Source: Escherichia coli
Lineage (GTDB): Bacteria; Pseudomonadota; Gammaproteobacteria; Enterobacterales; Enterobacteriaceae
Reading direction: 5' to 3' (one strand)
NCBI RefSeq assembly: GCF_965641715.1
Contig: NZ_OZ282453.1
Length of the DNA stretch: 64,000 bases
Shown piece by piece: positions 9,001 to 15,000 of this stretch. Every line of letters starts with the position of its first letter. The stretch's first letter is position 1. The position numbers were made by a program.

Positions 9001-12000
9001 CGTTTGATGTCACTCAGGGCGGTGAAGTTGTAGCTCAGGGAAATTATGACTATAAGCTGCTGGGAAGCTCCGACGGTATTAAAGGTGACGGACTGTACAT
9101 AGGCTATGGGCTGAAGTCGCTGGATTTACAGGGAACCGGTGATAAAGCGCTGGTGCTGACACCGAGAGCGAATGCCCAGGGACTGCAGACAGATCTTGGC
9201 GCACAGTTAACGGGGGCAGGGGATCTGGCCATCGAAGCTGCGGGGCAGGTTGTCACACTGTCTAACGGCGGTAATAACTACACCGGGGATACGCTGGTGC
9301 GCAGCGGCACATTACAGATGGCAAATGATAATGTACTTGGCGCAACAGGTAATCTGAACGTCGCCAGCAATGCAGTCTTCAGAACAAACGGATACAGCCA
9401 GACTGTCGGTGCACTGCAGACAGAAACGGGAGCGCACATTCAGCTTGATAGCGGTAGTGTACTAACGGTCAGCGGCACGCAGCGTCAGCCGGGGGATGAT
9501 AATGGTGGCATCATTGAAAACAATGTGCTGTCCGGTGAGGGAACGCTGGCTGTCACGGGCAGCAATCTGACGGTACATGGCACCAATATCGGGTTTACCG
9601 GTAATGCCAGCCTTACCCAGGGGGCGCTGGTTGAAATGAACGGCGCACAGGGGCTGGGAAGCCAGGGCTCCATCAGCTTTGAAAGCCTTAGTGATCGCCT
9701 GGCGATTGATATCGCCGACGGTAGCGGAGTCAGCAGTAACCTGAGTAAATCGCTTTCCGGAGAAGGTTCAGTGGGCATACTGAACACCACTGATCTGACG
9801 CTTTCCGGAGATAACCGTAATTTCAGCGGTGAATTCCGTGTGCAGAAAGATGCTGCTCTGCGGGCTTCAGATGAAAAACACCTGGGCACCGGGCTGATTG
9901 ACAGTGATGGTGTCACCTGGCTTACCGCCAGTGGAAACTGGTTACTGAAGAATGATATTACTGGCTCCGGCGCTCTGGTGAAACAGGGGGCGGGTAATCT
10001 GATCATTAATCATGAGCTGACTTATACCGGTGATACCACGGTAGAGAATGGCGTTCTGATTGTCGGTGATGATTCAGTCACCCGTGCCGCTGGCGCGACG
10101 TTGTCAGGGTCCAAAAACATTCATGTTCTTAATGGCGGCACACTGAGTGGGCTGGGGACCGTTTCGGGTCAGGTTAATAACCAGGGAACACTGGCATCAC
10201 TGAATGCTCTCTCAGGTTATGAAACGGCAGAGGCGGGCAATTTTACCGTTGGCTCACTGACCAATACCGGCGTCATTCGTCTGGCCGGTGGTAAGACAGG
10301 AAATACCCTGACCGTAAATGGCGATTACACTGGTGGCGGTACGTTAATTATCAATACCGTGCTGGGGGATGATACTTCTGCCACTGACAAACTGATTGTC
10401 ACGGGTAACACCTCCGGTGATACCGGCGTGGTGGTGAATAATGTCCGGGGCCAGGGGGCTCAGACCGCTGACGGCATTGAGATTGTGCATGTCGGTGGGC
10501 AGTCTGACGGTAACTTCAGACTGCAGAACCGTGCGGTGGCAGGGGCATGGGAATATTTCCTGCATAAAGGTAATGCGGGTGGTACTGACGGTAACTGGTA
10601 TCTGCGTTCTGAATTGCCGCCAGAACCACAACCGCAGCCGCAGCCACAACCGCAGCCACAGCCACAGCCACACCCCACGCCGGATAAACCTGTACAGAAG
10701 GTCTATCGTCCGGAAGCGGGCTCTTATATTGCGAACATAGCGGCAGCCAACACGCTGTTCAACATCAGAATGCACGATCGTGAGGGGGAAACTTACTATA
10801 CCGATGTGTTTACTGGTGAGAAGAAAGCAACAAGTATGTGGATGCGTCATATCGGCGGTCATAATCGCTGGAAGGACAGCAGTTCACAGCTGAATACGCA
10901 AAGTAACCGTTATGTTGTGCAACTGGGTGGCAGCATTGCGCAATGGACTGACGGTCAGGACCGTCTGCAACTGGGGATTATGGCCGGTTATGGAAATGAG
11001 AAGAGTTCCACGACATCCTCGCTTTCGGGATATAAATCTAAAGGTGCGATCAATGGATACAGCACCGGTTTATACGGAACGTGGCAGCAGAATGACGGTA
11101 ATGACAACGGGGCTTATGTCGATACCTGGATCCAGTACGGATGGTTTAATAATACCGTTAATGGTGAAAAACTGGCTGCGGAGTCCTGGAAATCCCGTGG
11201 ATTTACCGGTTCAGTGGAAGCGGGTTATACCTTTAAAGCCGGCGAATTTACCGGTAGCCAGGGTAGTCACTATGACTGGTATATTCAGCCGCAGTCCCAG
11301 ATCACGTGGATGAATGTAAGAGCCAGTGAGCATACGGAGAAGAATGGCACGAAAGTTCAGCTCAGCGGAGACGGTAATATCCAGAGTCGTCTGGGCGTCA
11401 GAACTTACCTGAAAGGTAAGAGTGCGTCTGATGATATTAAGGCGCATCAGTTTGAGCCATTTGTGGAAGTTAACTGGATCCATAATACACGGAGCTGGGG
11501 TGTCAAAATGGATAATACGGCACTCAGTCAGGACGGAGCTACAAATATTGCTGAAGTCAAAACGGGTGTTCAGGGTAAATTGTCAGATAACCTGAATGTC
11601 TGGGGCAATGTTGGTGTTCAGGCTGGCGATAAAGGGTACAGTGATGCCCAGGCAATGCTGGGTATTAAATATATATTCTAATCACACAGTGGCAGGAGGG
11701 GACCTCCTGCCACCTCAGGGTTGTCATAATGAGTTCTGTAATGAAATTTTCTGTTGTTAATGCAGTAGTGCTGCTGTTGCTGATTGTACTTACTGGTGTT
11801 TTTTATATGAAAAAGTCAAAAGAAATTGCAGTTGTTAATATCGATGCTATTTATAATCAGTCTACCGCCGGAGACATGGCCAGAAAGCATCTGAATGAGG
11901 TTAAGAGTATTCTTGAAAAAGGATATGAGGATGCGCAAAAAGCATTCGCAGATAACGCGAATAAAGAGGCGCTGCTTCTTGATGCCAGACAAAAACTGGA

Positions 12001-15000
12001 ACGACAATATGTTATTGAGGAAAATAGCGCAAAAATGGTGTTATCCCGTGCGATAGATAATGCCATAGGCACATGGAGAAAAGACAATCCTAAAAATATT
12101 GCCGTATTGTCTTCAGGTGTTGTGCTTGCGCATAACGAGTCAGCTGATATCACCAAAGAAGTCATGACTTTGGTTGAAAAAGAAAATCTGGTTTTTAATA
12201 AATTACCCAAAGTGGAAGTGCACAATAAGAATGAAGAGAAACCAGAACAAAGTAAGTAATCACTAGATTCTGACGATTTCCAGAAGGGAGATTCAGCAGG
12301 CCAGCATCTGTAATCATTCAGATTTGCTGGCTTGCTGCTAAATATGGTTGCTAAGAAAAATAGCAGGCCAGTAATTTATTCAGATTACTGAATATAATAA
12401 TTTTTCAGGAACGGTTATGCTGAAGGTAGTATGTTTAATAGACACAATTATTTGCTGTGTCTAATATGAGGTGACATTTTTATGATCACTGACCAGCAAG
12501 ACTGACCCGTATTGATTAGCCTGATTATTGGCAACTTATTGGGGTAGTCATTTTGACATCGAATGGGGGAGGTTTCCAGTTAAGTTCACGAATGCATGAT
12601 GATTTGCGTTCACATATCGAAGTACTGGTTGGCTATACTAAGGATTTTAAGATAACTCACTGATTGTAAGTGGGTTATTGCGAGGGGGATGATAGATGGT
12701 GTCCCCTGCAGACATCTACTTGAAGCAGCAGGGGATTGATTGGAATGGTGTTTTTTAGATGTGAGAAATATTTTACCCGCTATTTTACCCATTGGCGCGG
12801 CTTAAGAGCTTATTTTTGAATTCACAATGGTCACGATATAACCATCTTGCTCGACCGTGGATAACTTTGGCTTTTGGCAGGTCGCCGGACTTAATCCGGT
12901 CGTAGATGAAGGTTTTACCAAAGCCAGTATCAGCCATGATGAATTTCAAATCAACCAGGGAATCAGGCTGTAGTTCGTGTTGCATGAGTGCTATCTCCGA
13001 ATAGGGAATCGAACCTGCAAATCAGGTAATAAAAAACCGCCATCAGGCGGATTGGTGTTCTTTCAGTTCTTCAATTCGAATATTGGTTACGTCTGCATGC
13101 GCTATCTGCGCCCATATCATCCAGTGGTTATAGCAGTCGTTGATGTTCTCTGCTTCGATAACCCTGTTGAATGGCTCTCCATTCCATTCACCTGTGACTC
13201 GGAAGTGCATTTATCATCTCCATAAAACAAAACTCGCCGTAGCGAGTTCAGATATAATATCCACCAAAGGCAGTAGTTGCTTGATGCTAAGAATTATTCA
13301 ATATCTATTCCTGTAATATCTTTTATCTTTTTCCTTGCAAAGCCTTTTGCTAGTGATTTTGAAACACTCATAAGTGTACTAATTCCCTCATCCTTAAAGT
13401 TTGTTTTTATAGCTTGCCAGACATCCTTTTGACGTAAGTCAGCAATAAAATCATGCCCTCTTGCTGTCAACCTCAGTGGTACTTCGATCCAACTATATCC
13501 AACACCTTCCCCTAACGCTTTGGACATTATATGACCGAACCCAGGTTTTCCATCAACCCTGACTATTAATTCGTAGTCACATAATAATCGCATATGGAAA
13601 ATAAAATCTTGGTCATATCTATTAAAGCCATTATCCTCTAGTTCACTAAGCATCGTGTCAGGGCCACGAGTTTTTTCGAATGCGATAAGTAGATCTTTTA
13701 GATATTGCTGGTCTAATTTCATTGCCGCCTCCGTGACATGTCACAGAGATTTATATCATTAATTTTGTTTCGTGCCAGCGTTTGGTCACCCAGCATTGTG
13801 AGTCACCATTACACGGGCATGAATTAACAGGAACTCTCTCGCCGCACTTACCTCAACGTTTTCTGCTGATCGATTTTATACGCCAGCGCACACGTGCATC
13901 ATCCTGGCGGCTCAGTAACGCGATGTACTCACCAAACTCGCAAGGCGCACGCCTGAAGCGACGCGTGGCACAGTTACGCTCCAGCATTTCAATTTCCTGA
14001 GCATCAAGTACAAGCTCCAGCTTACGCATACCGGATGATGCTTGCTTGGCTCTCCGATCGGCTTTGTGCTCTGTTGCTGATTTAGCCATTCTGCTTTTCC
14101 TGCATCAGGAGAAAGACAATCATGGCGGCGCGGATACTTCCGGTATCTTTTTACGCGATATTCCCCTTCAATGGCACATACAAGAAGAGAGCCATCAACA
14201 GGAGTGATTGAGGAATCGACAACCAGCAACGCTTAATTATCTATAGTGTCGTATTTGCTTCATAAAATATGGCGAATAACACAAAGCCCGCAGCAGCTCA
14301 TTGTGCGGGCTTTTCTTATACCTACTTCCTAGAGATAATTCTATGGAGGCATTAAATCAATACTGTCATTGGTAATATCATATTATCTAAAAGTCTTTCC
14401 ACTTTTAACATCTAGGTATATTCTGTTCGACAACGTCATTCCTCCGCAATATGTGAAATAGATGTTTTCACCCTTATTGCTTGATGCCATCCACCCTCCG
14501 ATTTCCTTAAAATCGCTTTCCGTGCAGACCCCTTCATTTATTAACTTCCTAGCTGCCGAAGAAAACTCTTTTTTGTATATACGGTAGTCATCAGATCCTT
14601 TGATTAAAGTATCATCTCCGCTCGCATTTTCAGCAGGATCTGATGGCCTTTCACTGCTAAGATCACTAAGTTTAACCCATTCTGAAAACTTTCCATTAAC
14701 GATTCCATTTTTTCTTGTGCAGGATTTATTACCTTCTTTAATATATTCGCTTTCCCCTCCAACACATGAGGCTGAATATGGCTCAGTTATACGAACCCAT
14801 TCACCTTTTTTTTCTAGAAAATCTACGCCTTCCCTGAAAAATAGTTTCCCAGCCACTCCACATTTACTTGAAGGGCAGGTATGTCTTTCCGTTCGATCAA
14901 CAACAACCCATAGTTTTGATTCATTTTTTGCCATTGCCGATGGTATTTGAGATGAGACAATTAACGTAAGCCCTAAAATTAGTATTGATTTTTTCATTGT

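Follow-up and report, generated by a model that had tools for sequence, protein, structure and literature searches.

To our knowledge, classical (type Va) autotransporters are thought to rely on general periplasmic factors only (SurA, Skp, DegP, FkpA and BAM/TAM). In the window analysed here, a 64,000-nucleotide stretch of the Escherichia coli contig NZ_OZ282453.1 (assembly GCF_965641715.1), a small gene for an OmpH/Skp-like protein lies on the same strand directly behind upaE, the gene of such an autotransporter (Table 1). As summarised for type V secretion in a review of 2021, EspP is bound by Skp soon after its export, loss of skp impairs EspP as well as IcsA, and ESPR may prolong inner-membrane tethering; co-transcribed periplasmic helpers were listed there for trimeric autotransporters only (SadB and TpgA). 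UpaE was grouped with IcsA in a 2022 classification. The small protein displayed a divergent Skp/OmpH fold and was found linked to UpaE-type autotransporters in several hosts and replicons; in our estimation it has roughly even chances of being an accessory, non-essential and probably inner-membrane-tethered holdase for UpaE export.

An earlier note, made from the sequence by eye, had placed a Skp-like gene here in the orientation of upaE, which was borne out by the list of open reading frames (ORFs) and by translation. The two genes are indeed close and on the same strand, although the gap measures 47 bp rather than the 50 bp first given, and the 2639 amino acids attributed to the passenger correspond to the whole UpaE preprotein. 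This preprotein comprises, according to Pfam, ESPR, PATR repeats, an AC_1 autochaperone and an autotransporter beta-domain. The locus is ordered dsdC, ipuB (on the minus strand), ipuA, ipuS, ipuR, upaE and the OmpH-like gene, followed by a lambdoid prophage in argW and yfdC. RefSeq names for the small ORF vary between "OmpH family outer membrane protein", "membrane protein" and "hypothetical protein". Its alternative RefSeq start is the in-frame ATG at 11741, which yields 172 amino acids; the start at 11729 is favoured because the resulting N-terminus MSSV(M/I)KF is conserved in Salmonella and Escherichia sp. homologues. CFT073, the strain of the published work, displayed an intact copy (C_RS13725) 97 % identical to the gene of the window.

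Sequence comparisons indicated that the OmpH-like ORF is a real gene and not a chance ORF, and that it is under purifying selection. Ratios of non-synonymous to synonymous substitution rates (dN/dS, Nei-Gojobori) were 0.22 against an E. coli variant, 0.32 against the phage-plasmid allele, 0.14 against the Salmonella allele and 0.27 against a metagenomic allele, with synonymous divergence (dS) reaching up to ~1.6-1.7 in these four comparisons. The ORF was found in 252 out of 5426 (4.6 %) complete E. coli genomes, at 258 places, and was intact (at least 80 % coverage) in 250 of them. The 3' end of upaE was likewise found in 252 of the 5426 genomes and at 258 places, i.e. co-occurrence was exact. 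Best matches to the OmpH-like gene (query 11729-12259) lay at 95-99 % identity in 98 of the 252 genomes, while the 3' end of upaE (10700-11681) reached at least 99 % in 248 and was thus the less variable of the two.

The identification as a divergent Skp/OmpH-fold protein holds at the level of the fold. The Pfam model OmpH (PF03938) matched the protein over model positions 2-107 (E-value 2.6e-6, 28.1 bits), below the gathering score of 32.4. Family members P0035, P0038, P0040, P0044 and P0051, which are 25-32 % identical to it, exceeded this threshold (33-40 bits), most of them end to end; membership is supported transitively because these relatives pass. A search with hidden Markov models (HMMs) of OmpH/Skp, as proposed in the earlier note, was thus positive for the family, the window protein itself matching below threshold only. 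The resemblance had been called modest, which was fair, since direct similarity to Skp is negligible: BLASTP against Skp of K-12 was insignificant and phmmer against PDB retrieved no Skp. Searches of NCBIfam and PHROGs gave no match and no meaningful match, respectively. A profile of 59 family sequences matched four OmpH-like proteins of solved structure with E ~1e-4, and the predicted model displayed the fold of the Skp monomer, in which a body of N- and C-terminal beta strands carries an inserted long alpha-helical hairpin. The best structural matches of this model were all periplasmic holdases. The gene was rejected as a housekeeping Skp orthologue: it lies behind upaE next to argW, it occurs in 252 of 5426 genomes, its product has an isoelectric point (pI) of 5.7-6.4 and BLASTP was not significant. 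The skp gene of K-12 sits between bamA and lpxD. The word-indexed protein search reached close relatives only, and the wider family required an exhaustive HMM search of 1.84 billion representative proteins; it yielded 217 relatives with E<=1e-3 and 77 with E<=1e-10, and almost all of them measured 160-200 amino acids.

The protein begins with an uncharged hydrophobic segment whose mean Kyte-Doolittle hydropathy (19 residues) was 2.67, as compared to 1.17 for the signal peptide of Skp, and which has neither a cysteine nor an A-x-A site. In the family alignment, the end of this segment coincided exactly with the L-x-G-C lipobox of most relatives. Enterobacterial relatives linked to autotransporters displayed SGC-D or AGC-D at this place, and relatives in general carried standard signal peptides with A-x-A sites or lipoboxes. 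Aspartate at position +2 predicts retention of a lipoprotein in the inner membrane (Lol avoidance), and the lipid-anchored linked relatives are accordingly predicted to stay there. The E. coli/Salmonella clade seems to have exchanged this lipid tether for a signal anchor, and the window protein is probably tethered at the inner membrane by its uncleaved segment. In the C-terminal F-x-x-L-P-x-V motif, F and P were at least 90 % conserved among the 59 sequences; the predicted model was confident here (predicted local distance difference test, pLDDT, above 90) and less so in the tail (~61).

An autotransporter gene followed on the same strand by an OmpH-like gene was encountered in eight linked loci, the OmpH-like proteins being 25-78 % identical (Table 1). 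Intergenic gaps were 24-57 bp long, with the exception of L032. Linked autotransporters displayed 86, 85, 83, 40, 37-44 and 28 % identity to UpaE, and their OmpH-like partners, in the same order, 42, 62, 77, 27, 25 and 30 % to the window protein. What could be expected of a cognate helper, i.e. adjacency, same orientation and a linkage conserved across taxa, was found here, though the linkage is facultative. A tblastn search of plasmids returned only four records for each of three queries. A genome scan with the OmpH-like alignment A3 found no locus, probably owing to the rarity of the gene among species-representative genomes and to a narrow peptide pattern.

The spacer between upaE and the OmpH-like gene harbored a GC-rich hairpin with a folding energy of -24.1 kcal/mol (z -3.5), and none of 200 shuffled sequences folded as well. 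Equivalent hairpins of different sequence were found at the same position in L003, L006, L008, L022, L023 and L032, so that position and structure are conserved, with compensatory changes, while sequence is not. This suggests a selected mRNA element, either a stabiliser or an attenuator. A search of Rfam with the hairpin gave no family, and the terminator scan did not score it. A canonical Rho-independent terminator between the two genes was rejected, since the U-tract is missing here and likewise in five other loci. No sigma-70-like site was found on the plus strand in 11300-11729. Downstream of the OmpH-like gene, the counterpart of the imperfect hairpin at 12297-12334 is cleaner in L006 and precedes a T-rich tail; hairpins with T-rich tails after the gene in L023, L022 and L006 were read by eye, are weak, and were missed or mis-called by the scanner. 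Together, these signals fit read-through transcription with an intercistronic stabiliser or attenuator, which is not a proof of it.

In Battaglioli et al. 2018 (PMC6083910), ipuR-upaE was described as "a two-gene operon" and there was no mention of OmpH, Skp or a chaperone. A full-text literature search for autotransporters followed by a Skp-like or OmpH gene retrieved nothing relevant. As the earlier note had supposed, the arrangement thus appears to be undescribed, the two papers on the locus being silent although the gene itself is already annotated in RefSeq; the same appears to apply to the autotransporter-OmpH-like cassette as such, to the tether and to the divergence from Skp.

The reading to which we gave about even chances can be set out as follows. 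Through read-through, the OmpH-like gene would most likely form a third cistron of the ipuR-upaE unit under ipuS control, and the hairpin without U-tract behind upaE would serve as a barrier or attenuator on the mRNA and not as a full terminator. Its product, which may trimerise, would probably sit on the periplasmic side of the inner membrane, fixed there by the uncleaved N-terminal signal anchor, or, in related copies, by an inner-membrane-type lipid anchor. It could then capture the very long ESPR-bearing UpaE (passenger and/or beta-domain) on leaving SecYEG and maintain it in a secretion-competent state up to its transfer to the general SurA/BAM pathway. The benefit would be a better efficiency or less envelope stress, without the holdase being required. 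More tentatively, and in our view with the balance somewhat against it, the protein may stand for a distinct Skp/OmpH branch of inner-membrane-tethered cognate holdases for giant ESPR-bearing UpaE-type Va autotransporters, which would receive their client at the Sec translocon and move with it as a two-gene cassette among chromosomes, plasmids and P1-like phage-plasmids.

Several observations weigh against a holdase specific to UpaE. The reverse primer of pUpaE in Battaglioli et al. 2018 (PMC6083910) extends no further than the stop codon of upaE, and K-12 MS427 with pUpaE displayed UpaE on its surface, formed biofilm and bound extracellular matrix proteins; the OmpH-like gene is not essential for display because this insert suffices in K-12. 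In a 2019 mSphere study, reverse transcription quantitative PCR of islet genes was limited to ipuR and upaE. Screening one genome per species with the C-terminal 490 amino acids of UpaE gathered 80 enterobacterial autotransporter loci of 50-58 % identity, of which a single one (L032) carried the OmpH-like gene according to the family HMM; no remnants were found by tblastn in the remaining 79. Among the 80, some 19 code for autotransporters with 1800 amino acids or more, whose passengers are 35-40 % identical to UpaE; the linked proteins of L022 and L023 fall into the same range. In a rough neighbour-joining tree, the linked autotransporters formed the UpaE clade, a small group of L022, L023 and L032, and an outlier from Yersinia ruckeri, with unlinked ones interspersed, which implies several losses or gains. 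An obligate partnership with all UpaE-like autotransporters was accordingly rejected, 79 out of 80 related loci being without the gene. Distant family members in other phyla stand alone, and P0028 (L009), 43 % identical, has no autotransporter within 825 bp upstream. The mature domain, with its pI of 5.7-6.4, is acidic to neutral whereas Skp is basic (9.5), and lysines after the hydrophobic segment make the positive-inside rule ambiguous. The OmpH-like gene also evolves faster than the autotransporter (42 versus 86 % identity in L008), yet by these comparisons it keeps its place beside it. The dedicated chaperone proposed in the earlier note is thus supported in part only: it is plausible in view of the conserved synteny, but the partnership is facultative and UpaE reaches the surface of K-12 without it. 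The stakes are moderate as well, for a gene that is non-essential in K-12 and absent beside most relatives.

Some of these observations would suit an auxiliary, non-specific periplasmic chaperone or envelope-stress buffer of the islet, which would aid many outer membrane proteins or shield the cell during production of any large secreted protein, and have no specific relation to UpaE. The Skp fold, the stand-alone and apparently housekeeping OmpH-like genes of the wider family, the display of UpaE without the gene in K-12 and its absence beside most related autotransporters agree with such a role. We nevertheless hold it to be unlikely: except for L009, the gene stood directly behind a UpaE-type autotransporter in all enterobacterial cases with enough flanking sequence, the linkage persists although regulators, replicon and host differ, co-occurrence with upaE is exact in E. 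coli, and the probable membrane tether and the acidic surface are unlike the general, soluble Skp. The conserved F-x-x-L-P-x-V motif with its charged tail, absent from Skp, rather evokes a membrane-anchored structural or signalling partner that is not a chaperone, for instance one that reports export to the LuxR-type regulator, anchors or positions the adhesin, or faces the cytoplasm. The module repeatedly includes a GerE/LuxR gene as its third member, the domain is acidic and the lysine cluster after the hydrophobic segment leaves both topologies possible. Against this stand the best structural matches, all to periplasmic holdases, the standard signal peptides or lipoboxes of relatives, which place the domain in the periplasm there, and the absence of any regulatory domain detectable with Pfam in the window protein, so that we consider this alternative distinctly unlikely.

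It is improbable that the gene merely hitchhikes or decays, being kept by linkage to upaE on a small mobile islet with no current role in adhesin biogenesis. With dN/dS of 0.14-0.32 out to dS of ~1.6-1.7, intact copies in 250 of 252 genomes (at least 80 % coverage), and order, spacing and intercistronic hairpin kept down to 25-30 % identity, its maintenance is difficult to ascribe to linkage, even though it evolves faster than the autotransporter, was lost beside most related ones, and is truncated or frameshifted in some copies (the second Y. ruckeri copy and partial E. coli proteins).

If the more tentative reading of a distinct branch of cognate holdases is true, the protein would be the first periplasmic chaperone to be described as dedicated to a classical autotransporter. 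With a cognate, membrane-tethered Skp paralogue for UpaE-type adhesins, type Va secretion would gain a specialised step, and there would be a means of studying how the periplasm is crossed by polypeptides of more than 2000 residues and what purpose the ESPR-mediated pause at the inner membrane serves. In the literature on uropathogenic E. coli, ipuS controls two genes; a third co-regulated gene would affect the reading of ipuS ON/OFF states and of ipuR/upaE mutant phenotypes, and would matter for UpaE-type scaffolds in surface display.

Table 1. Features of the upaE locus in the window and linked autotransporter-OmpH-like loci elsewhere
Feature	Position	Strand	Basis or remarks
ipuB, tyrosine invertase	853..1422	-	RefSeq annotation
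ipuA, tyrosine invertase	2170..2799	+	RefSeq annotation
ipuS invertible promoter element, phase-OFF	2762..3021		approximate limits, inferred from published fragment sizes
ipuR, LuxR/GerE-type regulator, first gene of ipuS-driven unit	3117..3737	+	Pfam GerE; Battaglioli 2018
upaE, 2639-aa classical (type Va) autotransporter adhesin, presumed client	3762..11681	+	Pfam; RefSeq "phase-variable autotransporter adhesin UpaE"
Intercistronic GC-rich hairpin, 11-bp stem, 3-nt loop, directly after upaE stop, no U-tract	11689..11713	+	folding
OmpH/Skp-like gene, 176 aa	11729..12259	+	ORF translation; RefSeq annotation in A30, TL20, CFT073; dN/dS
N-terminal 21-residue uncharged hydrophobic segment F7-M27, probable uncleaved signal anchor	11747..11809	+	hydropathy; predicted helix
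Skp/OmpH-fold domain: beta strand, helical hairpin "tentacle", beta strands, short helix	11813..12193	+	
C-terminal extension: F-x-x-L-P-x-V (F156, L159, P160, V162), then Lys/Glu/Pro-rich tail	12194..12256	+	
Imperfect hairpin 3' of OmpH-like gene	12297..12334	+	read directly from sequence; not called by terminator scanner; weak
L003, Salmonella diarizonae			order: invertase, GerE, 2632-aa autotransporter, OmpH-like
L006/L020, E. coli IncY P1-like phage-plasmid			PapI/PapB-type regulators in place of ipu switch
L008, plasmid-like metagenomic contig			relaxase gene nearby
L010/L018, Yersinia ruckeri plasmid			decayed duplicate on second plasmid
L022, L023, metagenomic contigs			ESPR/AC_1/beta-domain autotransporters, 2244 and 2318 aa
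L032, Intestinirhabdus alba			spacer ~190 bp

A GerE/LuxR gene recurred in the module, at 3117-3737 in the window, 10797-11183 in L006, 684-1211 in L021, 11016-11555 in L023 and 1214-1828 in L003, sometimes upstream and sometimes downstream of the pair; the conserved unit may be a triad with this regulator. No phenotype is known for IpuR in the literature. The UpaE paralogue (83 % identical) and its OmpH-like gene on P1/P7-like phage-plasmids were found in L020 (NZ_CP127299.1, pAPEC201602, IncY) and in L005-L007, and this cassette combines a different phase-variation-type control (PapI/PapB-type) with a mobile vehicle. The Pfam beta-domain model was unreported for this 2641-aa paralogue, yet its C-terminus is 92 % identical to that of UpaE. 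Both Y. ruckeri plasmids carry a SapC-family gene behind the OmpH-like gene (L018 6985-7827; L019 10569-11039). In the decayed duplicate on p17Y0159.1, a fragmented autotransporter C-terminus lies beside S6-peptidase ORFs and the OmpH-like gene is frameshifted.

In the assembly of the window, ipuS was called phase-OFF because the distance between the PacI site at 2998 and the end of the published reverse primer (3167-3188), 186 bp, matches the fragment reported for the OFF state. The published forward primer was not found at its expected site ~1.29 kb upstream, its only good match being at 260-279 in dsdC; ipuA is full length (209 aa). In the CFT073 reference (NC_004431.1 2747815-2755766; L106 1-5766 / L107 3815-4500), upaE is a frameshifted pseudogene according to RefSeq, despite the 271-kDa UpaE detected in this strain by published work; a sequencing error in the 2002 assembly or a difference in repeat length may account for the frameshift.

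The lambdoid prophage of ~44 kb (window 12697-56875) occupies argW immediately behind the islet. The window is identical to the prophage-free strain A30 up to ~12711, where a partial copy of the tRNA-Arg 3' end (attL) occurs, and an intact tRNA-Arg(CCT) was found at 56801-56875 on the minus strand, adjoining an integrase-sized ORF (55482-56675). Homologues of torI, exo, bet, gam, kil and cIII lie within 12.7-18.6 kb, and tRNA-Asn(GTT) and tRNA-Thr(TGT) inside the prophage at 26147-26302.

Compared to known systems, the window protein is clearly set apart from Skp (HlpA/OmpH; PDB 1sg2, 1u2m; PF03938), a general periplasmic holdase to which it was ~15 % identical in structural alignment. Skp has a cleaved signal peptide in contrast to the probable membrane anchor found here, E. 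coli Skp lacks the F-x-x-L-P-x-V motif and the charged tail, and skp belongs to the bamA-skp-lpxD cluster whereas the gene of the window follows an adhesin gene on a tRNA-associated islet. The OmpH-like protein CC_1914 of Caulobacter (PDB 4kqt) was 13 % identical, and we know of no linkage of this protein to autotransporters. SkpA, from the extended translocon of type 9 secretion (PDB 8gl8), belongs to another secretion system and phylum, and its association was shown by cryo-electron microscopy whereas that of the window protein with its autotransporter is known from genomes alone. No sequence or structural homology was found between the window protein and SadB or TpgA, the helpers co-transcribed with the trimeric autotransporters SadA and AtaA, the likeness residing in a small envelope protein beside a giant ESPR-bearing adhesin. 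SadB, a lipoprotein of the inner membrane, enhances display of its adhesin without being absolutely required, and the same logic is proposed here for the OmpH-like protein behind UpaE.

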